Positions 12,238-59,958 of a stretch of DNA of 64,000 nucleotides are shown one piece after another. Below the pieces are notes generated by a model. The model did not search any database. It was given only the letters and a program-made list of their open reading frames with translations, and was not told the DNA's origin. The DNA lies in the IMG/VR virus record IMGVR_UViG_3300025030_000039, positions 188,878 to 252,877 of that record; one strand, 5' to 3'. Made by a program: the position numbers and the translations under genes. The DNA is from a virus. Every line of letters starts with the position of its first letter. Position 1 is the first letter of the stretch.

Positions 12238-12310
12238 CGGTTTTGCCAATTGGCTTTTGTGCTTTTGTGCTTTGACTGAGAGTATGTGCGTGGCAAAACC
12301 GAACACATAC
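12238..12310 (-). other. GC-richer structured element with nested inverted repeats
   Basis: CGGTTTTGCCA (12238-12248) is the perfect reverse complement of TGGCAAAACCG (12291-12301). GTATGTG (12282-12288) and CACATAC (12304-12310) enclose the second arm. A CTTTTGTG tandem lies between them. The region is non-coding. Confidence 0.35.
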
Positions 12311-12340
12311 AACCATTCGTTATAAGTAATAAAATAAAAA

Positions 12341-12505
12341 CTACTTACTACTATTAATATCCTTAATCAAAATTTGAATTTCTTCATTTTTATTTTCTAA
12401 CTCTTTTTCAAATGCTTTTTGAAACTCAAACTTTTGTTCTTCACTTAACTCATTCAAATTTTGAATGTTAGTTTGTCTAATTTCTGCTTTAATTTTCTTT
12501 TCCAT
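12341..12505 (-). CDS. small hypothetical protein (54 aa, charged and helical), below the track cutoff
   Basis: Hand translation gives MEKKIKAEIRQTNIQNLNELSEEQKFEFQKAFEKELENKNEEIQILIKDINSSK with a TAG stop. It lies about 20 nt downstream of a minus-strand promoter-like motif. Confidence 0.35.
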   Translation of the reverse strand: MEKKIKAEIRQTNIQNLNELSEEQKFEFQKAFEKELENKNEEIQILIKDINSSK

Positions 12506-12522
12506 AATTTTACTGTTTTTAT

Positions 12523-12549
12523 TTTACATACTTATAACAACAAATATAA
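12523..12549 (-). promoter_or_regulatory. promoter-like motif on the minus strand, early-block variant (TTTGTTGTTATAAGTATGTAAAAT)
   Basis: The reverse complement is TTTGTTGTTATAAGTATGTAAAAT, about 20 nt before the ATG at 12505. The same motif recurs at 12900-12928, 15146-15173 and 18110-18135, and is related to the plus-strand TTTGTTATTATATTTA motif. Confidence 0.4.
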
Positions 12550-12589
12550 AACATTGCTGATGTAGTTTCTATTTATATTATACGTTTAA

Positions 12590-12655
12590 TTTCAAGTTTT
12601 GTTTCATTTATTTACATTCATGTTGCAACTTTTTATATTTGTAATCGTTATAGAT
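12590..12655 (-). repeat. ~65-bp element, inverted copy of 21940-22006
   Basis: The reverse complement of 12596-12643 matches 21951-21998 at 44 of 48 positions (ACAAATATAAAAAGTTGCAACATGAATGTAAATAAATGAAACAAAACT). Similarity extends a few bases on both sides. Confidence 0.55.
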
Positions 12656-12662
12656 AATAAAA

Positions 12663-12881
12663 TTAAAAATAGTCATGACTATCTATAAATAACTCCTTAT
12701 ATGTTTCATCAGTAAAAGAAAATCCTCTACCATCAACCGTCATTTCTACAACTTGCATCACTTTTAAGTAATTAATTATTGTGTCAAGTTCGTCTTCTAA
12801 TTCTTTACCTATTTTAAACATACTCATAGCTGCCATTATCTCACCAAGTCTTTCAATATTTTCTTTTACTTTCTCATCCAT
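12663..12881 (-). CDS. hypothetical protein (72 aa)
   Basis: Track ORF with a promoter-like motif 20 nt upstream, at 12900-12928. Confidence 0.4.
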   Translation of the reverse strand: MDEKVKENIERLGEIMAAMSMFKIGKELEDELDTIINYLKVMQVVEMTVDGRGFSFTDETYKELFIDSHDYF

Positions 12882-12899
12882 ATTAATTAGTATTTTTAA

Positions 12900-12928
12900 T
12901 TTTACATATCTATAACAACAAATATAAG
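12900..12928 (-). promoter_or_regulatory. promoter-like motif on the minus strand (TTTGTTGTTATAGATATGTAAAAT)
   Basis: Same family as 12523-12549. It sits immediately upstream of the gene starting at 12881. Confidence 0.4.
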
Positions 12929-12998
12929 AAATAAATCTTACTTTGTCTATTTTTTAATGAAAAGATTTACTTCTCATATTTGCAACCGTTAGGCATAA

Positions 12999-13190
12999 TT
13001 ATACTCTACCACTAAGGTAGTATTCTATTTCACTCTTACTAAAATCATCGGGCTTGTTTTTATAGTACTCCCTTAATTTTCCTTCGTGAACACCTTGTTC
13101 AAATGCCCATTTCATATCATCTAATGAATAACTACGCCTAACAAAGTATAAACGTAATGTTTTCAGTTTTTCAATCAATCTTTTTATCAT
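12999..13190 (-). CDS. hypothetical protein (63 aa)
   Basis: Track ORF. Confidence 0.4.
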   Translation of the reverse strand: MIKRLIEKLKTLRLYFVRRSYSLDDMKWAFEQGVHEGKLREYYKNKPDDFSKSEIEYYLSGRV

Positions 13191-13256
13191 ATTATTAAAT
13201 TTTGTATTTCAAATTAAGTTCAGTTAAACACTACGTTTATACTCAACTGTTATGGT

Positions 13257-13430
13257 TCATGCTAATCGCACAATTTGACGTTCATCTACTTGTGAAAAAC
13301 AATTTTCATTATATGGTTGTCCATCGTACCAAAATGAACTACAGTCCCATCTCGCAACATTCCATCCTTCGTAACTAAAATTATTAGGGCTAAATAAGTA
13401 TACCCAATAGTAACCTTCTTTTCTTTCCAT
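13257..13430 (-). CDS. small Trp/Tyr-rich hypothetical protein (57 aa), below the track cutoff
   Basis: Hand translation gives MERKEGYYWVYLFSPNNFSYEGWNVARWDCSSFWYDGQPYNENCFSQVDERQIVRLA. It looks more protein-like than the overlapping track ORF 13286-13573, which runs into a GC-richer non-coding stretch. Confidence 0.35.
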   Translation of the reverse strand: MERKEGYYWVYLFSPNNFSYEGWNVARWDCSSFWYDGQPYNENCFSQVDERQIVRLA

Positions 13431-13563
13431 TTTATTTTTATTTTAAGTTTAACAATCTGATTAATAAAGCACGAAACCATAACATTTGCTATATGTAACA
13501 CGGCTGAAAAGTCCGTACTATTTTGAGAATGTCTGCTATGCCGTGCTACACATATCATTTTCG

Positions 13564-13755
13564 TTATGAACAATGCTTAACGTCTGCCAACGCTATGTCA
13601 TGTCCACATTTTTTACATTTACCAACCATAATTAAGTGGTCGAAAGCATTGTTCATAACACCAAATAAATGAAATTTCTCTATTTCATCTATTGTCGGTA
13701 GTGCTTTTATTGTTACTTCTATACCACTTGGCAATTTTACTTTCATATTTTTCAT
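13564..13755 (-). CDS. hypothetical protein (63 aa; CKKCGH Zn-ribbon-like)
   Basis: Track ORF. Confidence 0.4.
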   Translation of the reverse strand: MKNMKVKLPSGIEVTIKALPTIDEIEKFHLFGVMNNAFDHLIMVGKCKKCGHDIALADVKHCS

Positions 13756-13913
13756 AGTCTATACCCATAGAACAAACCTTTCGCTTCGCAACACTAACAT
13801 CAGATATATTCAATTTTTTATTTGTATTATCCAAAGTTTCTTCTAAAATTTTACTCTTTTCCATTTTATTAAATTTTGTGTTAGAACTACGTATATGTAA
13901 TCATTATAGCCAA

Positions 13914-14264
13914 TTAAAGCACTGAATCATAATTGCTGCCTCTATCATCATAATCCCATTTAGAATCAAGCTCATAATATTCTTTTTTTGATTGTTGGTA
14001 TTCGATTCCTTTTTGCAATTCTTTAATTTGAGAATTAAGTTTATCTATTTTATTTTGCCTTTGCTCTGAAATGTATTTTTGTGCATCATTAACTGTTTTG
14101 AAAAATTTGTCGGAAGTCATAGATAAGCATATTCTCCAATTATACTCCGTACCAGCACTACGCAAAGACCTGACAAATGCGTAACTATCGGTTAATTTGA
14201 CGCAATCTCTTTCCCATATTCTAACTAAATCATCCTTTACAATATAAACTTTAAAAAACTCCAT
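13914..14264 (-). CDS. hypothetical protein (116 aa)
   Basis: Track ORF. Confidence 0.45.
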   Translation of the reverse strand: MEFFKVYIVKDDLVRIWERDCVKLTDSYAFVRSLRSAGTEYNWRICLSMTSDKFFKTVNDAQKYISEQRQNKIDKLNSQIKELQKGIEYQQSKKEYYELDSKWDYDDRGSNYDSVL

Positions 14265-14418
14265 ATCTATAAAATTAACTGACTATAACCCGTGGTATGG
14301 TTAGTTGCCGTGTTAGTACTAAATTTAAGCGTTACTACCCGCTTGTAATTTTCTGTAATTTGATAGGAAAGTAGCCCGCAATCGGCAACTAACCATACAA
14401 CCAACGTTATGATTAATT

Positions 14419-14598
14419 TTACTCAACCACTTCAAAGTCACCAACATTAATTGGGTGATATACACCCAACCCCTGACATATTGTAAATGTTCCATCTTCA
14501 TTAAATCCTTGATATGGCTCATCCTCTTCAAATATATCACCACTTTTAAATGTTGTCATATACCCCTCATAATCTTTTAGTAATTTAATTTTTTTCAT
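14419..14598 (-). CDS. small hypothetical protein (59 aa), below the track cutoff
   Basis: Hand translation gives MKKIKLLKDYEGYMTTFKSGDIFEEDEPYQGFNEDGTFTICQGLGVYHPINVGDFEVVE. It is preferred over the overlapping junk-like track ORF 14325-14543. Confidence 0.35.
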   Translation of the reverse strand: MKKIKLLKDYEGYMTTFKSGDIFEEDEPYQGFNEDGTFTICQGLGVYHPINVGDFEVVE

Positions 14599-14680
14599 AT
14601 TTTAATATTTAAGTAAAAAACTAACCATAACAAGGTGTATAAAACATAACCTAATTACAAATTTTAAATTAACCACGGAA

Positions 14681-14935
14681 CTATAATAGGTTATGTTTCA
14701 TACACCTAACCGTTAGCGGTAATTTAATAACAGTATTTTGAGCATCTTCATAGCTTTCAAATATCTTATTACATCTTGGACAAGAACAACAACCGTCAAC
14801 AACGGGTATAGCAAATAATTTTACTAAGTCAAATCGTAATTTTCCACATATTTCTCCTGTCATTTTTATATAATCAAGATTATCGTTATCAATTTTTACA
14901 TCACTTAATAATAAGTGTACTTCTTGTTCTGTCAT
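14681..14935 (-). CDS. hypothetical protein with CCSCPRC Zn-ribbon (84 aa)
   Basis: Track ORF. Its 3' end overlaps a CTAACGGTTAGG operator-like motif. Confidence 0.4.
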   Translation of the reverse strand: MTEQEVHLLLSDVKIDNDNLDYIKMTGEICGKLRFDLVKLFAIPVVDGCCSCPRCNKIFESYEDAQNTVIKLPLTVRCMKHNLL

Positions 14936-15290
14936 ATTTATAAATTTATTAGTTATTACTATTAATTCCGAACTGAGTATATCTGAGTGTCGTTATATGC
15001 AATAAAAATTATTTTTTGGATATTTTATATAACATTATAAATCCTATTAAAAAGTGATGGATGTTGTACAATTTGCCATTTCTATCAACTTCGCTACAAA
15101 AATATCCAAATCCTATTACAAATGGCAAAATCTTTATATTCATAATTTTTACAGTTTATAACAACAAATATAAGCAATTATTTTCATTACTTCCAAAATA
15201 AATGTTGTTTGTTAATATTAATTTTGTTCTTTTAATTAAGTTTCTACTAATTTTACTCAAATGTATATACCTGCAGACGTTAGCTGCCAT

Positions 15291-15482
15291 TTAAGGAAGC
15301 TCTGTAATAACATAGTTAATAGCCATGTTTATTTCTGTTTCAATTTTAAATCTATACCCATTAAGCTCATAAACATTTTCATCTTTCATTTTTTCTAAAC
15401 TAAACTTTTGCAATAGTTCATAAATCTGCGAAAGTGTAAGATTATTCACGTTGGCTTTTATGTTTAAGTTTATTGTCATCAT
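15291..15482 (-). CDS. hypothetical protein (63 aa)
   Basis: Track ORF. Its 3' end lies in a ~60-bp repeat shared with the 3' end of 16344-16550. Confidence 0.4.
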   Translation of the reverse strand: MMTINLNIKANVNNLTLSQIYELLQKFSLEKMKDENVYELNGYRFKIETEINMAINYVITELP

Positions 15483-15585
15483 AATAAAAAATGGTAGCTA
15501 ACATGATATATAAGCCATACAATGTTAAGGTTTATACTAATTTGATAGTGTCGGGTATGACTTATATACCCATTGTTAGAGTGCA

Positions 15586-15780
15586 TTATCTAAACACTCC
15601 TAAAAAATCTTTTAAGCAACTTTCGTTACATACGTAAAATATTTTATTTCCCTTAAAATAACATTCTGGCACTTTCATTGCTTTATGCTTTTTAATTTGT
15701 TTTTTACAACTTTCACAATTAACGCACTCTAACAAAGTATTAGCGTTATTGCCTTTCTTGCTTTCTGATAAGTTTTCCAC
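15586..15780 (-). CDS. Cys-rich hypothetical protein (64 aa; CVNCESC...C..C)
   Basis: Track ORF. Confidence 0.4.
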   Translation of the reverse strand: MENLSESKKGNNANTLLECVNCESCKKQIKKHKAMKVPECYFKGNKIFYVCNESCLKDFLGVFR

Positions 15781-15847
15781 ATTTTATATTTTAATGTTGT
15801 TAATAATTGTTTGTGATTGCGTTAACTCCAATACTCGACCATTAGGT

Positions 15848-16036
15848 TCAATCATTAATTTGTTTTGAATCTTCTATCATATTTTTGATTCGTTCTTTGA
15901 ATCTATGTTCGTATTCCTTATCAACTTCACCCAAGTCAGTTGTTTCAAGATATTTTTTAGGTAATCCTTTACCCATAGTTTCCTTGAGTTTATTTTGAAA
16001 ATACTCAAGTTCTTCGTTTGTGTTTTTATTTTCCAT
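15848..16036 (-). CDS. hypothetical protein (62 aa, charged)
   Basis: Track ORF. Preferred over the overlapping 15877-16077 frame, which has a junk-like composition. Confidence 0.4.
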   Translation of the reverse strand: MENKNTNEELEYFQNKLKETMGKGLPKKYLETTDLGEVDKEYEHRFKERIKNMIEDSKQIND

Positions 16037-16343
16037 ATTTTATATTTTTTTACAAAGGTAAAACAAATTAATGACAAAACCTAACAAATGATAAACAACA
16101 TTAAAACATTCGTTTATCTGCAACCGTTATAAAACAGTTTGCTTAAAAAAGTTTTCCACATTTTATACATCTAACCAAATAAGCACCAACCTCAAACTTT
16201 TCAAATTCGTGTTTGCAAACAGATTTTATAACAGGTATATCCAATTGCTTTTTTTGTTTTCTAAATAAACATTTTCACAATTTTTTCATCTTGTATTTCA
16301 ATTTAATTTTTACTAATTTTACGCAACTATATACCTGCAGCCT

Positions 16344-16550
16344 TTATAGTGCATTAAGGAAGTCCTCAGCATCCTTCACACTAAAGCATTTTGTGAATTT
16401 ACCTGTATTTTCATTCAACACTATTACAAAATCAACTGCTCCGTAATTAAATGCCAATTTAGTTGCTTCAATATCAAACACACATAAAGCATTATACTTT
16501 GGTATTACGGGTTGACAATCTGAATATTTTTTATCTAAAATTCTTAACAT
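16344..16550 (-). CDS. hypothetical protein (68 aa)
   Basis: Track ORF. Confidence 0.4.
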   Translation of the reverse strand: MLRILDKKYSDCQPVIPKYNALCVFDIEATKLAFNYGAVDFVIVLNENTGKFTKCFSVKDAEDFLNAL

Positions 16551-16876
16551 AGTTTTAAGTATTAACTTACTATAACAATGTGTATATGTAATGCAGCCAA
16601 TAAGTTAATTGTAAATTGAAAGTATATGCAAGACAAACCGACATCATACCGCCAGCCATTATAGCCAATTAAAAAGTAACACCATTATCATATCCAACCT
16701 CTATTGATATATTTTCAATTTCAGTATTTAATATTTGTGCTATCTTTTCTTTTAGTTCGATTATCTTGGTTACATCAATCATTACATCTTTGTAAACAGA
16801 AATTGAAATTAGTTCTTTTTCATTCATATTATCTAAGCAAACATTCTCATATACTTAACCATTATAGATAATGAAA

Positions 16877-17167
16877 TTAAATATCCTTAAAAAGTCTTCT
16901 TGGTGCTACTAATCTTCTACCATCATCACATTTAATAATATATTCACCATCAGGTTCTATAACAGTATCTAAAACATTATAAATATTACCAACTGTTATT
17001 GGAAAATTTGGGTTTGGATTTTCCGTACATAGAACTTGTTTAAGCATAAACTTATTATTAAATGTTCCATAAATATCTGAATTAACTATTTTAATTTCAC
17101 TATCTATAGCATCAGATATATGTAATTTTTCATCTTTTTTCATAATACTATTTTTATTAGTTAACAA
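16877..17167 (-). CDS. hypothetical protein (96 aa)
   Basis: Track ORF. Confidence 0.45.
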   Translation of the reverse strand: MLTNKNSIMKKDEKLHISDAIDSEIKIVNSDIYGTFNNKFMLKQVLCTENPNPNFPITVGNIYNVLDTVIEPDGEYIIKCDDGRRLVAPRRLFKDI

Positions 17168-17173
17168 AACAAC

Positions 17174-22090: not shown

Positions 22091-22978
22091 ATGAAAACAA
22101 AAAGATTTGATAGTTCAGAAGGTAATGTTTGGAAATATGTATTTGACTTTGAAAATGCAGTTGCCGAAGCGGTACTTTACAAATATGAAAACTTTTACAA
22201 AAGGACTGTACTTTGCGTGAGTGTGCAAAGTGGATGCCCTGTTGGTTGCAAATTTTGCGGAACTGGCAAAAAGTTTATTAGAAACCTTACAAACTTAGAA
22301 ATAGTTGCACAGGTTAAACATTGCTTAAAAGACATGAATATTGAAAATGTTAATTCGGCTAGTGATCGTTTCCAAATAATGTTTATGAGTATGGGTGAAC
22401 CTACTTTAAATATTGATAATGTAATAACGGCAATAAAGGATTTAAACAACTTATATCCAAATGCTGAATTACTTATTTCAACTATGGGGGCAAAAAACAA
22501 TACCGCTTTTGAAAAACTGTTAAAAGTAAGTATTGAAATACAAAAGGTTGGTTTGCAATTTTCAGTACATGAAGCATTTGAAGAAAAAAGAAACCAATTA
22601 ATATCATTTAAAAATAAATTGAATTTACGTGAAATGCGTGATTTTGGCATTGAGTGGAATAGGCAAACAAAACGCCCTGTATATGTGAATTATTGCATTG
22701 GAGAAACAAACCAAAGCAATGAAGAGATGGATAGGCTTAAAGACTTATTTAGCCCTGCTCTTTTCAATTTTACATTTTCGGTTATTTGCTCTTCTGATGA
22801 AAACATGAAAGATAAAGGATATAGAGAACTGAACAAGATAAACACAATTACTTCATCATTTGTTGAATGTGGTTATAATGTTCGAGTTTTCGACCCTGCT
22901 GGTCAAGATGATATTGGGGGCGGGTGCGGACAATTATGGTATGTACAAAACTGGATGCGTGACCATCATTACCGCTAA
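22091..22978 (+). CDS. RlmN/Cfr-family radical SAM RNA methyltransferase-like protein
   Basis: SVQSGCPVGCKFCGTG is the CX3CX2C radical-SAM motif in an RlmN-like context. FMSMGEPTLN and the C-terminal DIGGGCGQLWY resemble the conserved RlmN/Cfr Cys motifs. Confidence 0.8.
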   Translation: MKTKRFDSSEGNVWKYVFDFENAVAEAVLYKYENFYKRTVLCVSVQSGCPVGCKFCGTGKKFIRNLTNLEIVAQVKHCLKDMNIENVNSASDRFQIMFMSMGEPTLNIDNVITAIKDLNNLYPNAELLISTMGAKNNTAFEKLLKVSIEIQKVGLQFSVHEAFEEKRNQLISFKNKLNLREMRDFGIEWNRQTKRPVYVNYCIGETNQSNEEMDRLKDLFSPALFNFTFSVICSSDENMKDKGYRELNKINTITSSFVECGYNVRVFDPAGQDDIGGGCGQLWYVQNWMRDHHYR

Positions 22979-24296: not shown

Positions 24297-25445
24297 TTAT
24301 TCTATATTTGGATAATTAAAAAGTTTATTTTGATAGTTTTTAAGAATAAGATTTCCATTTTCATCTTTACCTTGATAGTATTCAGGAAGAATAGGAATTT
24401 TACCTCCTCCACCTGGAGCATCAATTACAAAGGTAGGTATAGCATAGCCTGAAGTATTACCTCTAAGATTAAACATTATTTCTATTCCTTTTTCGATTGA
24501 GGTTCTAAAATGTTCTGAACCTAGAATTGGATCACATTGATATAAATAGTACGGTCTAACTCTAACTTTAAGTAATTCATGAAATAATTTTTTAAGAATT
24601 AATGAGTCATCATTAATTCCTTTAAGTAATACCGTTTGAGATCCTAATGGAATTCCAGCATTTGCTAATAAGTTGCAAGCTTGTTTTACTTCAGGAGTAA
24701 TTTCATCTGGATGAGTAAAATGTATACTCATAAAAAGAGGATGATATTTTTGTAGAATATTTATTAGTTTTTTGTTTATTCTTTGTGGAAGTATAACTGG
24801 AACTTTGGTTCCAATTCTTATTATTTCAATATGTTTGATATTTCTAATAGTTGATAATAAATAATCAAGTTGTGAATCAGGTAAAGTTAATGGATCACCG
24901 CCAGAAATTATTACATCTCTTATTTCAGTATGTTCTCGCAAATAATTAAAAGCAGATTCCCAATTATTTAAATTTTTTTCTTTTGCTACAATATGAGAAC
25001 GTGTACAATATCTACAATATGTTGCACAAAAATCTGTTGCTAAAAATAAAACTCTATCTGGATATCGATGTATAATATTAGGTACCGGATTATCTTCATT
25101 TTCATTTAATGGATCTGATAATTCACCCTCATTTATATAATATTCATTTACAATCGGAATAACGCTTTTTCTTAATGATTGCAATGAATTATTTTTATCT
25201 ATTAAGCTAGAATAATAAGGTGTTATTCTTATAGGTAATGAATCTTTATTATTATCATTTATAGATTTTTCATTATCATTTAAATTAAAAAAATCATTTA
25301 ATTGTTTAATGTTTGTAATACTATTTTTTATTTGCCATCGCCAGTCATTCCACTGTTCTTTTGATGTATTAGGAAAATTTTCTTTTAAATATTCTATTGA
25401 TTTTTCACTAGGTTCTATAAGTGAGATATCATCATTTTTGTCCAT
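24297..25445 (-). CDS. KamA-family radical SAM aminomutase-like protein (lysine 2,3-aminomutase / EpmB family)
   Basis: N-terminal WNDWRWQIKN, LATDFCATYCRYCTRS (CX3CX2C in the KamA context) and C-terminal GGGGK. Confidence 0.8.
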   Translation of the reverse strand: MDKNDDISLIEPSEKSIEYLKENFPNTSKEQWNDWRWQIKNSITNIKQLNDFFNLNDNEKSINDNNKDSLPIRITPYYSSLIDKNNSLQSLRKSVIPIVNEYYINEGELSDPLNENEDNPVPNIIHRYPDRVLFLATDFCATYCRYCTRSHIVAKEKNLNNWESAFNYLREHTEIRDVIISGGDPLTLPDSQLDYLLSTIRNIKHIEIIRIGTKVPVILPQRINKKLINILQKYHPLFMSIHFTHPDEITPEVKQACNLLANAGIPLGSQTVLLKGINDDSLILKKLFHELLKVRVRPYYLYQCDPILGSEHFRTSIEKGIEIMFNLRGNTSGYAIPTFVIDAPGGGGKIPILPEYYQGKDENGNLILKNYQNKLFNYPNIE

Positions 25446-34232: not shown

Positions 34233-34235
34233 TAT

Positions 34236-35657: not shown

Positions 35658-35658
35658 T

Positions 35659-36225: not shown

Positions 36226-36235
36226 AAATTAAATT

Positions 36236-36457: not shown

Positions 36458-36458
36458 A

Positions 36459-37019: not shown

Positions 37020-37022
37020 ATA

Positions 37023-37583
37023 ATGAAAAATCAAACTTTAATTAACATTGCTAAAAGCATTTTAAAAGAATTATTATCTCAATGTACTGAAGAAGAACAA
37101 TTACAATTTAAACGAATGTATTCAAACAATCATTTAGATATGCCCATAAATGAAGTAGTTGATAAAATGAATATTGAAAATATAGATTGGGCAATTTCTC
37201 AATGTGAAAGAACAATTGAAAAGAAAAATAAAATAAAAGAAGAAAATTCTTATAAGCAAAAAGAAATTTGGGAAAACATTTTCAGCGAATTGGAAAATAA
37301 ATGTTTAAATGCTACTACAGTAATAAATCATTTAAATGAAAATTATACAATATTAAAAAATGATTTTAAATCAGAAATAAGTTATAAATTAGAAAAACAA
37401 ATAATTGATGGAGTATGGCGTGATACTACTTATAAAAGTTATATTTCTCCTAAAAAAGCAATTGCAGCATATAATGCGATGCCTTATCATAGTATAGAAC
37501 TAGATAAAAAAAATGATATGCAATTTAGAATAAAAGAAATACATTCAATAATAACAGAAAAAATTTCTGACTTTAAAATTTAA
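37023..37583 (+). CDS. hypothetical protein (186 aa)
   Basis: Track ORF. Confidence 0.45.
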   Translation: MKNQTLINIAKSILKELLSQCTEEEQLQFKRMYSNNHLDMPINEVVDKMNIENIDWAISQCERTIEKKNKIKEENSYKQKEIWENIFSELENKCLNATTVINHLNENYTILKNDFKSEISYKLEKQIIDGVWRDTTYKSYISPKKAIAAYNAMPYHSIELDKKNDMQFRIKEIHSIITEKISDFKI

Positions 37584-37587
37584 TTTT

Positions 37588-38433
37588 ATGGGACGTAACG
37601 ATAGAAATCAAGATTATTCTAAAGAGAATTATAAATTCGCCCAGGTTGATGAAAATATAATTTATCAATTAATAGATCAAAATCCTAAAATTTTTAAAAA
37701 GGGAAAATCTTTAGAAAAATCTTCAACAATTTGGAAAATCAATATTAATGTTAAAAAAGGATATTTAATTTCTATTTTAAATATTATTTGTTCATCTGAT
37801 AGATACAAATGGTTTGATAATTTAAATAATGAAGTAGGAAGCGTTTATTTATATAGAAAAGAATTTAAAAATGTCGAAAAACCTATATTTTATATCATTA
37901 TCTACAGATATGGAATTAGATTTGAATTTTCAGAATTATTTGATGGAACTAGTAACGGTTTGCCTAGAACAAATAGAATTATAACAGATGAAGAAGAAAA
38001 ATTAATGATAAGTAATATTAATAATAATATTAATTTAACTCACATAAAGCATATCATTAATAAATATTCTAAATTTTCTAATAATACTATACTAAATATT
38101 TATGAAGATATACAAATGAATGAAGTATTTAGCTCATTATTTAAATATATTAAAAAGTTTAAATTATATAAAAATATTGATATTAAAAATTTAAAAAATC
38201 TTTTTAATGCTTTTATCATTACATCTGAAGATATTCGTGTAGCTGTGTATGATAATATTAATAACATATTAATAGAATTATTTAAACTAATTGGAGATTA
38301 TTATTATAAATATTTAGAATATTTTATTGATAATGATCCAATTAAATATATCGAATTTATAAAAATTTGCAATAAAAAAATTCGTACAAAATATGAACAT
38401 TTATTTAATGCTGAAGATTTTAGTTTAATTTAA
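37588..38433 (+). CDS. hypothetical protein (281 aa)
   Basis: Track ORF. Confidence 0.45.
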   Translation: MGRNDRNQDYSKENYKFAQVDENIIYQLIDQNPKIFKKGKSLEKSSTIWKININVKKGYLISILNIICSSDRYKWFDNLNNEVGSVYLYRKEFKNVEKPIFYIIIYRYGIRFEFSELFDGTSNGLPRTNRIITDEEEKLMISNINNNINLTHIKHIINKYSKFSNNTILNIYEDIQMNEVFSSLFKYIKKFKLYKNIDIKNLKNLFNAFIITSEDIRVAVYDNINNILIELFKLIGDYYYKYLEYFIDNDPIKYIEFIKICNKKIRTKYEHLFNAEDFSLI

Positions 38434-38441
38434 AAATACTT

Positions 38442-38654
38442 ATGATTAAAAATTTTATTTTAACAGTCTTAACAATAGACTTAAATAGTCCTTACATAAA
38501 ACATGGGAGTTGGATTTTAATGACTATTATTTTTCTTATTGTTTTTGGTTATTTTAACAGTAATAAAAGTAGAGGAATTGATAGTTTATCAAATGGAATA
38601 TTTACAATATTTTGTTATTTAATTTCATGGATAATTTGGTTAATAATTTATTAA
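38442..38654 (+). CDS. small membrane protein (two TM segments)
   Basis: Track ORF, hydrophobic. Confidence 0.35.
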   Translation: MIKNFILTVLTIDLNSPYIKHGSWILMTIIFLIVFGYFNSNKSRGIDSLSNGIFTIFCYLISWIIWLIIY

Positions 38655-38655
38655 T

Positions 38656-39036
38656 ATGAGAAAATTTACAGAAGGCTATATTTTAGAGGAAGATGAATTT
38701 CTTTTAAAGATTTCAGGATCTGGATATCGTGAACATAATGCTAATAAAGGATTTTTAACAAAATTTACGCAAAAAGGAAAAATTCCTTTACCTTTTAAAA
38801 ATTGGCATCCAGACCTTGACATATATGTAGTTAAAGAGGAATTTCGAAAAGGATGGAAAATCGTTGGCTTTAGAGAAGGAATGAGTACAACTTGGGTAAT
38901 ATTAGTTCATCCGAATAATTATACTCTTGAAATTAATATTAGTAATTTTATAAATTTACTTAAAGAAATAACAATTGATAAAGGTGAACTAATAGGAGAA
39001 TTTAGATGGGAAGATCATAATTTAATTCAAAAATAA
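38656..39036 (+). CDS. hypothetical protein (126 aa)
   Basis: Track ORF. Confidence 0.4.
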   Translation: MRKFTEGYILEEDEFLLKISGSGYREHNANKGFLTKFTQKGKIPLPFKNWHPDLDIYVVKEEFRKGWKIVGFREGMSTTWVILVHPNNYTLEINISNFINLLKEITIDKGELIGEFRWEDHNLIQK

Positions 39037-39067
39037 TATTCAAATTTATGCAAATAATTAAAATAAT

Positions 39068-39334
39068 ATGAAAAACCTTTTAAAAATAAAAACACTTCTA
39101 AAAAATATTCCAGAAAAAGTATTATATGATTTTGATTTATTGAAATTATTAAGAGAAGTTCAAATTAATGCTGTAGAAGTATCATTAGAATTAGCGGCTA
39201 AATCAGCTACGACTAAAGATGATCCTAATTCTTATGCCGGAAATACTGGAAGTGAATGTTCTGCTGATATCATAGTTGATACAAAATCAATATTAGATTG
39301 TAGACAAACTTTAATTAATCAAATTTATGAATAG
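39068..39334 (+). CDS. hypothetical protein (88 aa)
   Basis: Track ORF. Confidence 0.35.
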   Translation: MKNLLKIKTLLKNIPEKVLYDFDLLKLLREVQINAVEVSLELAAKSATTKDDPNSYAGNTGSECSADIIVDTKSILDCRQTLINQIYE

Positions 39335-39839
39335 AAATTGGAGTAGAAAAGATCGTCATACTAGAAGAAAAATAAAAGGTATTATTGATAAAATAGAATT
39401 TGCTACTAAAGATATGCCTATAATACTTGAAGTTGTTGCATGTGGTTCTTATAGAAGGCAGTTTGATTATTGTGGTGATTTAAATATGTTATTTAAATTA
39501 TCAAATATTGATAAAGTTGGAGATGTTATTCCTATACTTATAAATAAAATAGGACCTGATGAAATATTAACACATGGAAAAAAGAAATCAAATATTTTAA
39601 TAAATAAAGTTCAAATTGATTTAAATTTCTCAAGTGTTGAATCATGGCCTTATGCTTTATTACATCATACTGGATCAGTCGAAGAAAGTATTAGGTTACG
39701 AAAAGTAGCAAAAAATAAAAATTTAAAACTAAATGAAAAAGGATTATATAATGAAAATGATGAATTAATTAAATTATCTTCAGAAAGAGATATTTATAAT
39801 TATTTAGGTATTGAATATAGAAGTCCAGAAAATAGATAA
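39327..39839 (+). CDS. minimal DNA polymerase X-like nucleotidyltransferase (palm and thumb only, 170 aa)
   Basis: VACGSYRRQFDYCGDLNML matches the Pol-beta GS.RRG...GDxD motif with the second Asp replaced by Asn. IDLNF, LLHHTGS, LNEKGLY and ERDIYNYLGIEYRSPENR match the Pol-beta palm and thumb motifs. The size recalls the ~174-aa minimal Pol X of African swine fever virus. Confidence 0.65.
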   Translation: MNRNWSRKDRHTRRKIKGIIDKIEFATKDMPIILEVVACGSYRRQFDYCGDLNMLFKLSNIDKVGDVIPILINKIGPDEILTHGKKKSNILINKVQIDLNFSSVESWPYALLHHTGSVEESIRLRKVAKNKNLKLNEKGLYNENDELIKLSSERDIYNYLGIEYRSPENR

Positions 39840-40251
39840 AACAATGGAAATTTTAGAAAAGATATTTTTAAGAAAAGCTAAGAAAAAATATTATACAAGT
39901 TTAAGTCCTAATATTGCAATAGAACATATTGTATATAATTTTTTTAATGATGAAATAATTATTCCGTCAGGATATATTAGTGATGAAATTCAGTTTGTAT
40001 TAAATGATTTATATTTTAATTATAAAAATAAAAATGATTTTAAATTTAGAATTATAAATTTTATGTATAAATATCATAAACAAAAAGAAACTAAACTAAA
40101 ATATAATTTAAGTCCTAAAGATAATAAAGTATGGGCATGGAATAAAAAAATGTGGAGAACTACAAAATATTTTTTAGGAATTAAATATTATGTTTATACT
40201 CTTATTAAACATAATCAAAAAGATTTAGAAATTAAATATTCATTTAAATGA
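39811..40251 (+). CDS. hypothetical protein (146 aa)
   Basis: Track ORF, the last of the plus run. Convergent with tnpB. Confidence 0.4.
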   Translation: MNIEVQKIDKTMEILEKIFLRKAKKKYYTSLSPNIAIEHIVYNFFNDEIIIPSGYISDEIQFVLNDLYFNYKNKNDFKFRIINFMYKYHKQKETKLKYNLSPKDNKVWAWNKKMWRTTKYFLGIKYYVYTLIKHNQKDLEIKYSFK

Positions 40252-40350
40252 AAAAAGAAGAAATAATAGGTACTACTGGTAAACTTGTTGATTTATTTAA
40301 AATATAAAATTCAATAAATTAAATAATTAATTATAAAAAAGTATAAATAT

Positions 40351-41673
40351 CTATATTTTGTCTATAAAGACATAATTAAGAACCATACTTTTATGTGAAT
40401 TTTGCTTAAAAACATCAAACTCATGTAAACACTCATCCAATGAAACTCGATATTTCAATCTCGAATTTTTTACAACCTCAATATAAAATCCCTTCCAATC
40501 CTTAAACGATGTAACCATTTCCTTCCATCGGTGTTTCACATCAAAAACTGGATAAAACCCTACCTTGCTTTTCTTTATTCTATACTCGTACCCTCGTCTA
40601 GCAATCTCTATCGACGCATTTACCGCATCAGTATATTCGTATTGCATATTCCCTATAAAACTAGAATACGCTGGATTAACTTCATATAAACCAATACCTA
40701 ATACATTCAATCTTTTAGCCAAATTAGAAATAAATTTATCTCTCTTCCATAAATTTCTATTCTTTCGATTTCCTATTTTATTATGTTTTTGCTCTTTAGT
40801 TAATTTTTGCTTAAACTTCAAATCCTCAATATATACAGTCTTACAACCAAACTGTCTAGCAATCAATGATACAGATTTAGCAATCTCGATCGTTTCAAAA
40901 TTTAATTTATTCTGATAATACTTCATCTTAACAGAATCTGAACTTAATTTTTTACTTAAAATTTTATTAAAAATTAATTTCAAACTAAACTCTTGAGCAT
41001 GAATAACTTTATTATTTTCTAAAACGGAAATTCCAATTGTATCTGGATTCAAATCGATACCTAAATACCTATTTTCATTTAATTGCTTAATCTCTTTATT
41101 CTTAAACTCTTCGAAACTTATATAAACATACTTCATATCAAATCGAACAGAATATGTATATCCATGCTCATTATATTTAACTTCATTTAATTGTTGAAGC
41201 CTAAACAACTCTTTCTTTATATTATTCCTTAAATTAGGTAATTCAAGTTCTATATGTTTAACTTTATTTAACTTAAATATTATTTTATTATTCTCTATAA
41301 TATTCAACTTAAAACTTCTATTTCCTTTTTTTAATACTTCGCCTTGAATATTTAATGGACTCAATCGTTTTAAATCAAATTCTTCTTTAGAAATTTTGTC
41401 TTTTAATCTATTAATAAAATTAAACTTTCCACCAAATACAACTTTAATATCTTCAAACCTCTTCTGCATTGCTTTACCATCCAATATAGCACATTGAACT
41501 AACCAAGAGTTAAGCAAATCAACATTACTTAACTCTTTAGTCAATAATCTTATTTCCTTCTCATTCTTACCCTCGAGAAATCGATTATAACTATACCTTA
41601 CAACATTAGAGTATTGCTTAAGTATAGAAGTTAAATCTTCATCAGTTTTATATGGTAACTTAATTGTTTTCAA
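40351..41673 (-). CDS. tnpB: TnpB-like RuvC-fold nuclease (OrfB; IS605/IS607 accessory protein), zinc-finger-less variant with TTG start
   Basis: RuvC-I is YLGIDLNPDTIGISV. RuvC-II Glu is in KTVYIEDLKF. RuvC-III is VNPAYSS...YTDAVNASIEIARRG. The usual CxxC...CxxC zinc finger between RuvC-II and RuvC-III is absent. The first in-frame codon after two TAA stops that could start translation is TTG at 41673. Confidence 0.8.
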   Translation of the reverse strand: MKTIKLPYKTDEDLTSILKQYSNVVRYSYNRFLEGKNEKEIRLLTKELSNVDLLNSWLVQCAILDGKAMQKRFEDIKVVFGGKFNFINRLKDKISKEEFDLKRLSPLNIQGEVLKKGNRSFKLNIIENNKIIFKLNKVKHIELELPNLRNNIKKELFRLQQLNEVKYNEHGYTYSVRFDMKYVYISFEEFKNKEIKQLNENRYLGIDLNPDTIGISVLENNKVIHAQEFSLKLIFNKILSKKLSSDSVKMKYYQNKLNFETIEIAKSVSLIARQFGCKTVYIEDLKFKQKLTKEQKHNKIGNRKNRNLWKRDKFISNLAKRLNVLGIGLYEVNPAYSSFIGNMQYEYTDAVNASIEIARRGYEYRIKKSKVGFYPVFDVKHRWKEMVTSFKDWKGFYIEVVKNSRLKYRVSLDECLHEFDVFKQNSHKSMVLNYVFIDKI

Positions 41674-41675
41674 TC

Positions 41676-41840
41676 TTATTTATTAATTAATGCTTTTATA
41701 TCTTTATCTTTTATAAAATTCAAACCACCAATCTTTACAAAATTCAACACACCCTTTTCCTTCCAATTATATAAAGTCTGTCTAGTAACATTAAATTCTT
41801 TACATACCTTCGATAGTTTTAATAACTTAAAATCTTCCAT
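41676..41840 (-). CDS. 54-aa MerR-like HTH protein resembling the N-terminus of IS607 TnpA serine recombinase (catalytic domain absent)
   Basis: MEDFKLLKLSKVCKEFNVTRQTLYNWKEKGVLNFVKIGGLNFIKDKDIKALINK matches the IS607 TnpA N-terminal pattern (...TLRRWDREGKL...). Its stop lies 2 nt before the tnpB TTG, in a different frame. Confidence 0.55.
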   Translation of the reverse strand: MEDFKLLKLSKVCKEFNVTRQTLYNWKEKGVLNFVKIGGLNFIKDKDIKALINK

Positions 41841-41968
41841 TGCTTAAAATATTAATTTATTTTATATATCATCAAGCCTTTATAGTTTTATATAAAATTT
41901 AGTTATATTTTTAAATTAAAAACTTTAATATTATATTTAATTATTAAATTTATATAAATTATAACAAA

Positions 41969-42304: not shown

Positions 42305-42336
42305 TTACGAAATATATTTACTTAGATTAAAAAATT

Positions 42337-42711: not shown

Positions 42712-42715
42712 ATAA

Positions 42716-43398: not shown

Positions 43399-43740
43399 AT
43401 GCTAAAACCTGAACATATATATTTTCATATTTTAGATTCAGATATAATAGGTCATATAGAAGTCGTTATAACTCCTATTGAAATATTTAATAAAGTTAAG
43501 TTTATTTCAAGCATAAAAACATATCCTGAACTTAAAAATATTTTTAATGAATTAGAATTAGAATTTATTGATTCTTCAAGACTTATTCATAATGGTATTT
43601 TAACAAAAGAAGAATTAAATGATAAAATGCTTTCTTTAGGATTTAAAACAAACGAAGAATTTAAAGAAATAACAGAAAGTTTTTTTGAAATTGAATACGT
43701 TCCAAAATCAATTGAAGAATTAAAAAATTTAATAAAATGA
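43399..43740 (+). CDS. hypothetical protein (113 aa)
   Basis: Track ORF. Confidence 0.4.
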   Translation: MLKPEHIYFHILDSDIIGHIEVVITPIEIFNKVKFISSIKTYPELKNIFNELELEFIDSSRLIHNGILTKEELNDKMLSLGFKTNEEFKEITESFFEIEYVPKSIEELKNLIK

Positions 43741-52851: not shown

Positions 52852-53685
52852 ATGGATTTAAGTTATGACCGCAGAATTTTACTAAATTATTCGAAAGAAA
52901 TAGAAAAAAGATTATTAACACAAGCAGAGGAAATTGAATGCTCATACATTATTCAAAATTCTCAACCTTGTGATCCAAGAAGAATTAGTGCTATTCAAAA
53001 ACTCGTAAAACATAATTTACGATATGGATTATCAGTTGCAAAACAATATCAGAATCAGGGACTCCCCTTACCTGATTTAATTAATGAAGCAAGTATTGGA
53101 TTAATCAAAGCAGCTGAACGATTTGATTATAGTACACATAAAACTAAATTTATAACATGTGCTGTTTCATGGATAAAACAATGCATCAAAGATGCACTAT
53201 GTGAACACGCAAGAACTGTAAGATTACCTAGACAGATTCATAATTATAAAAATGAATTTGAAAAACTTAAAAATAAACAAATAGCTGCAAATGGAGTTTA
53301 TGATATTGAAACAATTGCAGAAGAAATGATTGTACCAAAAAGAATAGTACATGATTTAGAAAAAATAACTCAATTTGGTGTATCATTAGATGAACCTGTA
53401 ATGGGAGAAGATGATGGACAAAGAACAAGATTAGATACTTATATTCCCGAATCTGAAAAAAATAATGATGAAAATGAAGATATCAAAAGAAAAATAAAAT
53501 ATGGATTGTCATTTTTAAAAGAAAGAGATCAAAATATTATGAAAGATGCATATGGTATAGATAGAGAATATGCATTAAGTATTGAAGATGTCGCAATAAA
53601 ACATGATTTAACTGAAGTAATGATTAGAAAAATAATGAGAGATTCATTAGATATGTTAAAATATCTTATTAATAAGAAAAAATAA
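52852..53685 (+). CDS. sigma-70 family RNA polymerase sigma factor
   Basis: Region 2 is unmistakable: LVKHNLRYGLSVAKQYQNQGLPLPDLINEASIGLIKAAERFDYSTHKTKFITCAVSWIKQCIKDAL...ARTVRLP. A region 4-like HTH (LSIEDVAIKHDLTEVMIRKIMRDSLDMLK) sits at the C-terminus. Confidence 0.85.
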   Translation: MDLSYDRRILLNYSKEIEKRLLTQAEEIECSYIIQNSQPCDPRRISAIQKLVKHNLRYGLSVAKQYQNQGLPLPDLINEASIGLIKAAERFDYSTHKTKFITCAVSWIKQCIKDALCEHARTVRLPRQIHNYKNEFEKLKNKQIAANGVYDIETIAEEMIVPKRIVHDLEKITQFGVSLDEPVMGEDDGQRTRLDTYIPESEKNNDENEDIKRKIKYGLSFLKERDQNIMKDAYGIDREYALSIEDVAIKHDLTEVMIRKIMRDSLDMLKYLINKKK

Positions 53686-55127: not shown

Positions 55128-55502
55128 ATGGAAAAATTAAAAGATCTGGAAAAATTAAAAGATTTTATAACAGAAGATGATTTGAATAAATTTAAAGAAG
55201 GTGTAATTGAAACAGCAAGAGAAAATCTTAGAAGAGATAAACAATTATTACCTATTATTCATTTTTTATTCATTAAAGATAATAAATTAGCAGTTGCATT
55301 AATGCCAGTAAATGATTTTATGATTAATGATCAAACAAAAGATATAATGGTTCACTTAGTTAAAAAAACTATTGATGAATTTAATGTATTTGCATTAATT
55401 ATGATACAAGAAGCATGGCTCAGTTCTATTAATATTAATGAAAAAGATACATATCAAGGAAGGCCTTCAGAAGATCCAAATCGTAATTTTCAAATATGCT
55501 AA
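55128..55502 (+). CDS. hypothetical protein (124 aa)
   Basis: Track ORF. Confidence 0.4.
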   Translation: MEKLKDLEKLKDFITEDDLNKFKEGVIETARENLRRDKQLLPIIHFLFIKDNKLAVALMPVNDFMINDQTKDIMVHLVKKTIDEFNVFALIMIQEAWLSSININEKDTYQGRPSEDPNRNFQIC

Positions 55503-55601: not shown

Positions 55602-56540
55602 ATGCCAAAGATATTAATGAATTTGGAACAAGCTTTAGATGTATTTAAACATATAATAGCAATAACTGGAGATCAAAATTTTCATTTAGCAGGATCAGCA
55701 AGAAGAGGTAAAAAAGAAAATTTAAAAGATTTAGATATAATCTATTTAGGAGATGAAATTCCTGATATAGAAAATGCTATTTATGTTGCAGATGGACCAT
55801 CATTAAAAAGAATTAAATTAAGATATGAATTTTCAAAAGGAATATTTGATTATGTTTCTATGGATATTCATATTGCGAATAAATTAAATTTCGGTTCTAC
55901 TCTTTTATATTTTACAGGTTCTCGGGAATTTAATATTAATATGAGAAAAAATGCTATGTCTAAAGGATGGAAACTCAATAGACATGGATTGTTTAATCAA
56001 AATAATGAATTAATAGCGGCTGAAAATGAAATAGATATTTTTTCAGCATTAGAAATTCCTTTTGTTAATCCTGTAGATAGAACAATATTTAAATCTGAAC
56101 AAGATGAAGAAAATCAAAAATTAATAAATACTATACGTCAATTAGCAATATTTCATGCTATTGAAGGTGATCATTATCGATCATCAGCATATTTTAAAGC
56201 ATCTTCATCATTACAAGAAATTGGTAATATCAAAAAATCAAAAGAAAATAACGAACTTATTTGTATAGATAATGTTGGAAATTCAATAGCAGCTAAAATC
56301 ATCGAATTTTTTGATACGGGTAAAATACATAAATTAGAAAAATTAAAAGAAACATATCCAGTTGATGTAGAAGGATTATTAAGTTTAGAAGGAGTTGGAT
56401 ACAAAAGCTTATTTAAATTTTATAAATTATTAGGAATAGAAACACTTGATGATTTAAAGAAAGCATGTAAAGAAAATAAAATAGCAAATCTTCAAGGATT
56501 TGGATTATCATCTCAAGAAAAAATATTAAATCAACTATGA
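55602..56540 (+). CDS. DNA polymerase X-like protein with apparently permuted domain order (palm and thumb first, then 8-kDa/HhH fingers)
   Basis: The N-terminal half has the Pol-beta motifs HLAGSARRGKKENLKDLDII (GS.RRG...D.D), LLYFTGSREFNINMRKNAMSKGWKLNRHGLF and ENEIDIFSALEIPFVNP. The C-terminal half holds IDNVGNSIAAKIIEFFDTGKIHKLEKL and LEGVGYKSLFKFYKLLGIETLDDL, helix-hairpin-helix motifs like the Pol-beta 8-kDa and fingers domains. Confidence 0.65.
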   Translation: MPKILMNLEQALDVFKHIIAITGDQNFHLAGSARRGKKENLKDLDIIYLGDEIPDIENAIYVADGPSLKRIKLRYEFSKGIFDYVSMDIHIANKLNFGSTLLYFTGSREFNINMRKNAMSKGWKLNRHGLFNQNNELIAAENEIDIFSALEIPFVNPVDRTIFKSEQDEENQKLINTIRQLAIFHAIEGDHYRSSAYFKASSSLQEIGNIKKSKENNELICIDNVGNSIAAKIIEFFDTGKIHKLEKLKETYPVDVEGLLSLEGVGYKSLFKFYKLLGIETLDDLKKACKENKIANLQGFGLSSQEKILNQL

Positions 56541-59181: not shown

Positions 59182-59958
59182 ATGCTAATAGATTTAACTT
59201 TAAAATGTAACGAACAATGTACTCATTGTATGGTAGATGCTCTTCCGACAGGTAAACATATGGAAGAAAAAACATTCATAGATTTATGTGGTTTCTTATT
59301 TATAATTAAACCTCCTATTGTTCAAATAAGCGGTGGTGAATTTACTCTTCATACTAATTTTTATGAGTATATTCAAAGATTAACTAATATGCTTCCAGAA
59401 AGTATGTTTTTACTTGAAAGCAATGGTTCATTTATAAATGATAAAGATAAAGTCAAAAAATTAAAAGATTTATTATCTATAAAAAATGTATATGGGCTTC
59501 AAATTAGAACTCATGAAAAATACTATCCAAACTTTGAAAATACAATGAAGAATCAAATGATTTTAAAATCATTACATCCTAAAGTTATGTTTTTCTCAGA
59601 TGGTATAGATGAGTTAGTTCCTATAGGAAGAGCAAAAACTAATTATCCAGATAACATAGCAACTAGAAGACCTCAGTGTTCAAATGTATTTTTATTAATT
59701 AAACAACCTGCTGCTAAAATAACTTCATTTAAAGAATTAATATTTACGTTACAAAGAAATGGAATATTCTGTAAACCTATGATTGATATCGAAGGAAATA
59801 TTAGAGCTGGTGAAACTCCATTTTGTCAAAAGTTTGGACATATTACCGATTCTTTAGATACTTTGTTCAATAATATTAAGAAAAGTGTACCGTGTGATGC
59901 TTGCGGATTAGTTAAAAATTACAAGCCTATAGAAAAATCTATTATATTCTCAGTTTAA
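59182..59958 (+). CDS. radical SAM protein (small, 4Fe-4S CX3CX2C plus SGGE motif), with extra C-terminal Cys residues
   Basis: LTLKCNEQCTHC is CX3CX2C. The QISGGEFTLH glycine-rich SAM-binding motif is typical of the activating-enzyme/QueE-like radical SAM subfamily. Five more Cys lie in the C-terminal third, ending in CDACG. Confidence 0.65.
   Translation: MLIDLTLKCNEQCTHCMVDALPTGKHMEEKTFIDLCGFLFIIKPPIVQISGGEFTLHTNFYEYIQRLTNMLPESMFLLESNGSFINDKDKVKKLKDLLSIKNVYGLQIRTHEKYYPNFENTMKNQMILKSLHPKVMFFSDGIDELVPIGRAKTNYPDNIATRRPQCSNVFLLIKQPAAKITSFKELIFTLQRNGIFCKPMIDIEGNIRAGETPFCQKFGHITDSLDTLFNNIKKSVPCDACGLVKNYKPIEKSIIFSV

Follow-up and report, generated by a model that had tools for sequence, protein, structure and literature searches.

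Family-X DNA polymerases (Pol X) are the smallest DNA polymerases, and the Pol X of African swine fever virus (ASFV) serves as the textbook minimal example. A 170-residue open reading frame (ORF) from a phage genome raises the question of whether such a minimal enzyme still works when one of its metal-binding aspartates is replaced by asparagine. The ORF lies in a stretch of 64,000 nucleotides with 23% G+C (the window; positions 188,878 to 252,877 of IMG/VR record IMGVR_UViG_3300025030_000039), and the genome is a 462,018-bp, unannotated 'uncultured phage' record (LR756500.1). The ORF is a genuine stand-alone minimal Pol X made of palm and thumb, and its family assignment is secure. The reading that we favour, at a probability of roughly 55%, is that it represents a lineage-specific, polymerase-impaired minimal Pol X, and that gap filling is covered by an intact, circularly permuted paralogue encoded 16 kb downstream.

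A stand-alone palm and thumb

Relatives were collected with an exhaustive phmmer search of 1.84 billion cluster representatives, which gave 4389 sequences at E <= 1e-3; the counts of representatives given below refer to the best 150 of these. A word-indexed protein search with the single sequence returned the minimal Pol X alone, and relatives were found only with the exhaustive search or a profile. The gene and its parts are the following.

39327..39839, + strand: gene of the minimal Pol X, 170 aa, restricted to palm and thumb, ATG start, TAA stop (Pfam, phmmer, AlphaFold/Foldseek)
39339..39365, + strand: clade-specific basic N-terminal motif W5-S-x-K-x-x-H-x-R13, found in 11 of the best 150 representatives
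39372..39653, + strand: palm subdomain, about residues 16-109 (PF14792 over residues 16-63, alignment to ASFV Pol X and Thermus thermophilus PolX, column conservation)
39654..39836, + strand: thumb subdomain, which binds the nascent base pair, residues 110-170 (PF14791, E 6.8e-18; LLHHTGS; R125, equivalent to Pol beta R283)

The start ATG overlaps the stop codon of an upstream 88-aa ORF (ttATGAATAG), and the gene stands within a long run of small co-directional genes. An earlier note, made from the sequence of this stretch, had recognised Pol-beta palm and thumb motifs in the ORF. All those that it quoted are present, namely C39-G-S-Y-R-R44, G50-D51-L52-N53-M54-L55, V95-Q-I-D98-L, L111-L-H-H-T-G-S117 and the C-terminal SERDIYNYLGIEYRSPENR. 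Its description of the C-terminus as 'almost residue-for-residue' that of Pol beta was overstated; the similarity is real, and amounts to 10 identical residues out of 19 (human Pol beta 315-335) plus several conservative replacements. Pfam recognised the thumb (DNA_pol_B_thumb) over residues 110-170, covering positions 1-62 of the 63 in the profile, with a score of 64.7 bits for a cut-off of 25, a resemblance far above what chance would produce. The palm (DNA_pol_B_palm) was matched over residues 16-63 with an E-value of 7.6e-6, barely above threshold (26.6 bits vs 25). The palm holds the GS-RR triphosphate-binding motif (G40, S41, R43, R44), whose columns are 99-100% conserved among the 150 representatives, as well as all three positions of the catalytic triad, and T115, G116 and R125 of the thumb are conserved. 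No PHROGs family was found for the protein.

Comparison with the PDB by phmmer gave ASFV Pol X as the best match (E 1e-14, 57.7 bits, residues 35-170 aligned to ASFV 33-173), followed by T. thermophilus PolX (ttPolX; E 3e-12, 49.8 bits, residues 26-167 aligned to ttPolX 173-311). Nothing in the protein matched ttPolX residues 1-170, which comprise the 8-kDa and helix-hairpin-helix (HhH) regions, there was no HHH or PHP match in Pfam, and the protein ends at the thumb. The statement of the earlier note that the fingers and 8-kDa domains are missing, as in ASFV Pol X, therefore holds, and the length of the two proteins agrees. An AlphaFold model computed with an alignment of 52 sequences had a pLDDT of 95.3 and a pTM of 0.89, while prediction from the single sequence was poor (pLDDT 52). 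When compared with the PDB by Foldseek, the model matched Pol lambda, mu, beta and ttPolX with query TM-scores (TMq) of 0.81-0.88, the best values by structure being 0.87 for Pol lambda, 0.83-0.84 for ttPolX (root-mean-square deviation 1.9-2.1) and 0.82 for Pol mu and Pol beta.

The low palm score, taken alone, could also fit another nucleotidyltransferase of the Pol-beta fold, such as a CCA-adding, Cid1-like, antibiotic-modifying or CD-NTase-like enzyme. We consider the probability of such an identity negligible. It is effectively refuted by the score of the thumb, which is specific to Pol X, by the matches in the PDB (60 of the best 60 by sequence, and 50 of the top 50 by Foldseek, are family-X polymerases) and by the absence of any Pfam match to NTP_transf_2 or another nucleotidyltransferase family. 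The best profile matches are the Pol beta palm and thumb and not the CCA-adding or Cid1 families, and the superposition of the motifs on the Pol X palm, implied by the earlier note, is borne out by a model that superimposes on Pol X structures only.

The closest relatives are stand-alone proteins of 171 aa (P0002, 45% identity) and 175 aa (P0003, 44%) encoded on low-G+C contigs of small co-directional ORFs; a scan of JGI metagenomes gave no relative closer than 38% identity. Twenty-six of the best 150 representatives have at most 185 aa. One minimal relative (167 aa) is encoded on a 105-kb contig of phage-like character that also carries an amidase and a methyltransferase gene, another (156 aa) on a 199-kb contig resembling those of nucleocytoplasmic large DNA viruses, 4 kb from an ATP-dependent ligase, and the IMG/VR relatives are mostly on metagenome-assembled genomes of giant viruses. 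The lineage to which the phage protein belongs has a wide distribution, in giant viruses, in uncultured phages, and in archaea and bacteria with small genomes. Also among the closest relatives are proteins of 220-250 aa (P0004-P0015, P0060) in which a CxC...CKH module precedes the WSxKxxHxR motif and the minimal Pol X. The WSxKxxHxR motif is common to these fused forms and to the closest stand-alone relatives. Pfam does not recognise the CxC...CKH module as SWIM, so that 'SWIM-like' is a reading of the motif only.

ASFV Pol X (O174L, 174 aa; 1jaj, 5hrb, 5xm8) resembles the phage protein in being restricted to palm and thumb, in its near-equal length, in having GS-RR, D-x-[DN], D and TG in register and in lacking Asn at the position of Pol beta N279. 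It differs in having all three aspartates and in belonging to a virus with a eukaryotic instead of a bacterial host, and it is an active repair polymerase. The two do not appear to be specially close: ttPolX scores nearly as well (49.8 vs 57.7 bits) and the closest relatives are the uncultured 171-175-aa proteins and those fused to the CxC...CKH module. In a fold search of a viral structure library, giant-virus PolXs came first, and several of them far surpassed the ASFV entry (E 1e-14 vs 5e-6). These giant-virus proteins (a 174-aa 'DNA polymerase family X protein' of Harvfovirus, and those of Pithovirus, Catovirus and GVMAG contigs) share the fold (TMq 0.78-0.86) but have intact triads and only 24-38% identity to the phage protein. 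The genome studied here also differs from those of giant viruses by its phage-like character. Besides the 'uncultured phage' label in GenBank, the PHROG matches in the window (a sigma factor, a head maturation/ClpP-type protease and a pyrophosphatase) agree with a phage identity.

Two substitutions in the active site

The earlier note had also proposed that the second metal-binding Asp is replaced by Asn, and this was confirmed by alignment. The codons concerned, together with that of a second altered position, are listed here.

39477..39485, + strand: codons 51-53, GAT TTA AAT, encoding D-L-N instead of D-x-D (N53 codon AAT at 39483-39485)
39618..39620, + strand: codon 98, GAT, third catalytic Asp kept (ASFV D100, Pol beta D256)
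39687..39689, + strand: codon 121, AGT (Ser), a position occupied by Asn in 98% of relatives (Pol beta N279, which contacts the dNTP, i.e. the deoxynucleoside triphosphate, in the minor groove)

In the HMMER alignment, D51, N53 and D98 face D49, D51 and D100 of ASFV Pol X, and we take them to be the equivalents of Pol beta D190, D192 and D256. The triad thus reads D51-N53-D98, with two of its three metal ligands acidic, and falls short of the full catalytic signature of the family to which fold and ancestry assign the protein. Among the best 150 representatives, 141 have Asp at position 53, 2 have Glu and 1, which is poorly aligned, has Pro, whereas Asn is confined to the query; the D-D-D triad is found in 134 of them and D-N-D in none besides the query. 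The relatives from IMG/VR and JGI metagenomes in which all three positions are aligned (n = 122) comprised 120 with D-D-D, 1 with N-N-D and 0 with D-N-D, and all of six cultured-phage PolXs have DxD...D. When the 16 columns that are at least 95% conserved were considered, the query deviated at two of them, D53N and N121S, both of which are active-site positions; two or more deviations at these columns occur in only 6% of relatives. The other catalytic or substrate-binding residues (G40, S41, R43, R44, D51, D98, T115, G116 and R125) are kept.

The D-N-D triad is unique among about 270 relatives examined, and both substitutions appear recent, the two closest relatives having GAT at codon 53 and AAT at codon 121. 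The N53 codon differs from theirs by a single G-to-A transition (AAT vs GAT), and D53N is best read from these codons as one transition, specific to this lineage, of the kind towards which AT-rich genomes are biased. There was no rate acceleration, since the mean identity to outgroups was 35.6% for the query and 38.0% and 34.7% for its closest relatives. This would fit a recent change as well as continued selection on the protein. An ASFV Pol X chain that was crystallised (5xm9) has Asn at the same position (NDVNLL vs NDVDLL in 1jaj), which is why it outranks wild-type ASFV Pol X in the phmmer search. A literature search for such Asp-to-Asn mutants by mutation name retrieved unrelated papers only.

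An artefact of sequencing or assembly, or a minor allele, concealing a canonical DxD motif deserves mention because a single base (GAT to AAT) is at stake in a consensus derived from a metagenome, and because the assembly versions are not all identical, the window having a 124-bp deletion elsewhere compared with the public record. We regard it as very improbable. The identical 170-aa protein, including N53, was found on 5 contigs from NCBI (LR756500.1), JGI, ENA and an independent Logan assembly of SRR1658462, so that N53 is not an error of one assembly; positions 30000-50000 of the window are 100% identical to LR756500.1, and the same gene carries a second active-site change, N121S. The 124 bp are missing at about 55486/55487 and are present in LR756500.1 and in Logan contig SRR1658462_12299. 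They fall within ORF 55128..55502, immediately upstream of the second Pol X gene described below, and the product of this ORF has 173 aa in the record and is frameshifted to 124 aa in the window; the 173-aa version has a weak Pfam match to Phage_lambda_Ea47. Stop-codon recoding had been raised by a gene call that did not match the ORFs of genetic code 11, and was rejected since ORF coverage was equal with codes 11, 4 and 15; the mismatch is explained by the 124-bp difference between window and record.

A second Pol X and the role of the minimal one

A second Pol X gene, which does not figure in the earlier note, is present 16 kb downstream of the minimal one. We refer to its product as PolX-2.

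55602..56540, + strand: PolX-2, 312 aa, order palm-thumb-8 kDa-HhH, intact triad (Pfam, HMMER, BLASTP)
55602..56081, + strand: palm and thumb of PolX-2, residues 1-160, with LLYFTGS and Asn at the N279 position
55728-55730, 55734-55736 and 55863-55865, + strand: triad of PolX-2, D43, D45 and D88 respectively (alignment)
56109..56537, + strand: 8-kDa domain (HHH_8, residues 170-241) and HhH 'fingers' (HHH_5, residues 257-312) of PolX-2, aligning to ttPolX 3-145

A Pfam scan of the larger ORFs placed the Pol beta thumb of PolX-2 at residues 100-160, ahead of HHH_8 and HHH_5, and HMMER aligned it with ttPolX in two swapped stretches (residues 11-160 with 167-311, and 171-309 with 3-145). Similarly, BLASTP against three canonical PolXs of about 320 aa gave two high-scoring segment pairs in swapped order. 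When residues 165-312 were placed before residues 1-164, a single segment pair of 321 columns was obtained with a canonical PolX of 323 aa (32% identity, E 1e-48). As judged from these alignments, PolX-2 contains the complete Pol X core in circularly permuted form. The same order is found in P0265 (297 aa, 44% identity) and P0266 (296 aa, 39%), which are colinear with PolX-2 over 98% of its length, the latter being encoded on 10 contigs from JGI, ENA and Logan, one of which has 348 kb and 24% GC. The permuted architecture is therefore real and conserved, and no assembly artefact. PolX-2 resembles the PHP-less PolXs of about 320 aa of candidate phyla radiation (CPR) bacteria and DPANN archaea, and T. 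thermophilus PolX (3au2), in having four alignable subdomains, but differs from them in their order (palm-thumb-8 kDa-HhH instead of 8 kDa-HhH-palm-thumb). Its third HhH motif, GFG, is of the bacterial/archaeal type. The Lys of its A-A-K-I motif is conserved and aligns with that of A-E-K-I in Pol lambda and ttPolX; it is presumably the nucleophile of a deoxyribose phosphate lyase. The stop codon of the PolX-2 gene, TGA, overlaps the next ATG. Nothing in the literature that could be searched describes a permuted Pol X. A 2026 survey (PMC12926913) mentions a group, 'PolX2', that carries an additional helical domain at the C-terminus, naming the protein of Streptomyces hawaiiensis (UniProt A0A6G5RSZ6), and PolX-2 may possibly be related to this group. 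By tblastn, the whole 462-kb record has only these two Pol X places. The minimal Pol X and PolX-2 share 34% identity and are therefore not recent duplicates.

The mechanism that we propose is as follows. In this one lineage, a G-to-A transition has changed the second metal-binding Asp (Pol beta D192, ASFV D51) to Asn, and the dNTP-contacting Asn (Pol beta N279) has been replaced too, by Ser. To our knowledge, the equivalent of Pol beta D192 bridges both catalytic metals in every Pol X, so that a strong loss of Mg-dependent nucleotidyl transfer is the most likely outcome. The protein would fold and could bind gapped or nicked DNA and a dNTP through its intact GS-RR, TG and R125, and nucleotide addition would be poor or nil. 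Gap filling would most plausibly be carried out by PolX-2, with its three aspartates, its Asn, its 8-kDa domain with a lyase-type lysine and its HhH motifs. The presence of this intact enzyme in the same window changes the reading of the D-to-N substitution, since the minimal copy may be redundant: it could be a recently disabled paralogue or be kept for a non-catalytic role.

The pairing of D53N with N121S points towards a lost or reduced polymerase function, because the same pairing is found in inactive PolXs (PMC9226535). According to Prostova et al. 2022 (PMC9226535), the Asn equivalent to Pol beta N279 has a conservation of 93% among canonical PolXs of prokaryotes and is replaced, mostly by hydrophobic residues, in almost all PolXs with an altered triad, which were shown to be without polymerase activity. 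Altered triads occur in 27.5% of prokaryotic PolXs (PMC9226535), so that triad loss is an already known phenomenon in the family. The phage protein shares with these noncanonical PolXs a substituted triad residue and the loss of the N279 equivalent, but is not a member of that group. The noncanonical proteins have about 570 aa and a functional PHP 3'-5' exonuclease domain, to which their retention is ascribed, in many cases have palm deletions, and form clades (PMC9226535), whereas the minimal Pol X has no PHP domain, a full-length palm and a singleton change.

Several points weigh against a loss of activity. The ORF is intact in a genome of 23% GC, where stop codons arise easily. All other catalytic and substrate-binding residues are kept and divergence is not accelerated, as would be expected if some function were still under selection, but equally for a very recent mutation. 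Asn can ligate a divalent metal through its carbonyl oxygen, so that residual or Mn-dependent activity may persist. There is no PHP nuclease domain to provide another activity, in contrast to the characterised noncanonical PolXs. Caution is also needed with N121S, since ASFV Pol X has Leu at the N279 position in the phmmer alignment. Moreover, a clade of giant-virus PolXs of about 630 aa has Ser at position 121 together with an intact DDD triad, and N121S alone is therefore no sign of inactivation.

A rival reading is that the minimal Pol X is still an active gap-filling polymerase, in which the carbonyl oxygen of Asn53 acts as metal ligand or Mn2+ is preferred, metal dependence or fidelity being tuned in this way and catalysis not abolished. 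Confidence in the model is no lower than for any active Pol X, every other active-site residue is present, divergence is not accelerated, and in other polymerase families Asp-to-Asn changes at metal ligands sometimes leave a Mn-dependent activity. We nevertheless find continued activity rather unlikely, though it is the alternative to be taken most seriously. D-N-D is found in no other of about 270 relatives, which argues against free exchange at this position in active enzymes; the sole tolerated natural alternative seen was Glu, in 2 cases, and the N279 equivalent is lost too, as in inactive PolXs (PMC9226535). A different possibility, which we consider improbable, is that the protein has been kept for a non-catalytic task, such as detecting or shielding nicks and gaps, sequestering dNTPs, or assisting or regulating PolX-2, and that Asn was selected because it traps the substrate without turnover. 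This would agree with a fold, and residues for the binding of DNA and dNTP, that are intact around a metal site that looks dead, with the retention of the clade-specific basic N-terminal motif and with the precedent of polymerase-dead PolXs kept for other functions (PMC9226535). It agrees less well with the restriction of D53N to a single lineage, as a conserved feature of no clade, with the absence of an accessory domain, with the location of the two Pol X genes 16 kb apart instead of in one operon and with the lack of a conserved neighbour, the downstream 146-aa ORF being unrelated to the ORF beside the closest relative. A two-component Pol X system, in which the intact permuted enzyme would be assisted by a minimal Pol X with a selected D-to-N change, acting as a non-catalytic or Mn-only partner or regulator that binds gaps or nicks, appears to us similarly improbable. 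If it were true, the minimal copy would provide the first case of a polymerase-dead Pol X kept without an accessory nuclease domain.

Genomic setting and significance

The genes next to the minimal Pol X have no recognisable function, except for a TnpB-like ORF and a helix-turn-helix (HTH) gene encoded downstream on the opposite strand. These and other recognisable genes of the window are given below.

22091..22978, + strand; 24297..25445, - strand; and 59182..59958, + strand: three radical-SAM proteins, one with a lysine-2,3-aminomutase C-terminal domain
40351..41673, - strand: TnpB-like ORF, 440 aa (Pfam SSO2105_N), immediately downstream of the Pol X operon
41676..41840, - strand: HTH_17 gene, 54 aa, beside the TnpB-like ORF
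52852..53685, + strand: sigma-70-family factor (Sigma70_r2/r4, phrog_351), 2 kb upstream of PolX-2

Pfam and PHROG scans of about 80 ORFs of the window gave neither a ligase nor an AP endonuclease, a glycosylase or Ku, and a local repair module was therefore rejected. We also rejected a conserved module made of a minimal Pol X and an overlapping partner of about 146 aa, because the overlapping 147-aa ORF downstream of the closest relative is unrelated. The independent Logan contig ends about 100 bp into the TnpB-like ORF, and a 20-kb query matched 5 places in the record, which suggests that the TnpB-like ORF belongs to a multi-copy insertion element. On the 348-kb contig, too, a TnpB (OrfB_IS605) gene is found, 1.3 kb upstream of the gene of the permuted orthologue. 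The P0003 Pol X gene is overlapped at its 3' end by an ORF (L159 2547..2828) that is homologous (36% identity, E 7e-13) to window ORF 43399..43740, located 3.5 kb downstream of the minimal Pol X on the far side of the TnpB element. This similarity hints that the insertion element has split an ancestral gene neighbourhood.

The window contained no tRNAs, Rfam gave no match, a promoter scan was uninformative (63 sites vs 63.5 expected) and no terminators were found. A region of about 5 kb (about 12300..17170, - strand) with a slightly higher G+C of 0.28 contains no ORF of more than 116 aa and many short ORFs in different frames; genetic codes 4 and 15 did not rescue it and it had no Rfam match. 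Either many tiny genes in a row or one large gene that has decayed could account for it. The window also encodes a family-2 glycosyltransferase, a GATase/peptidase C26, a GNAT acetyltransferase, a NIF phosphatase and a leucine-rich repeat (LRR) protein. Together with the radical-SAM proteins, these could reflect a capacity for base or metabolite modification.

The earlier note considered a minimal Pol X in a phage unusual. This holds in so far as tblastn with three Pol X queries against 50,697 phage records found Pol X in about 10 genuine phage genomes, none of them with a protein as small. It does not hold for Pol X as such, which is already annotated in phages, nor for minimal forms, which are common in metagenomes and giant viruses. 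Among cultured phages, Pol X is encoded by Escherichia phages vB_EcoM_IME392 and EP_H11, Acinetobacter phage Ab1-TPeters, Vibrio phage 2.275.O, Yersinia phage YerA41 (DNAP03) and Cobetia phage Carin-5. As in the present genome, these are family-X palm and thumb genes in tailed-phage genomes, several of them annotated as Pol X, but the proteins have 243-298 aa, are extended at the N-terminus by a helical or HhH-type segment, and carry DxD...D as well as the Asn equivalent to N279. The Pol X gene has been discussed for YerA41 (PMC9023294), where it is considered a probable gap-filling enzyme, and for Carin-5 (PMC12686479), and both phages have hypermodified thymidine (PMC9023294, PMC12686479). 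In IME392 a DNA ligase gene directly follows Pol X, which contrasts with the absence of a ligase among the ORFs scanned here. In Vibrio phage 2.275.O the Pol X gene is directly beside that of a sigma-70 region-2 protein.

Pol X in a minimal form, in phages and with an altered triad had in each case been documented already, and the present findings do not overturn current understanding. The D-to-N change may be merely a recent disabling mutation in a redundant gene. What the minimal gene adds is that its architecture also occurs in huge phages, at a size below that of any cultured-phage Pol X annotated. Its natural Asp-to-Asn change at the bridging metal ligand offers a ready-made test of the chemistry at a Pol X site with two carboxylates. 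PolX-2 is the more novel object of the two, as a naturally circularly permuted Pol X that is conserved in at least three phage-like lineages.

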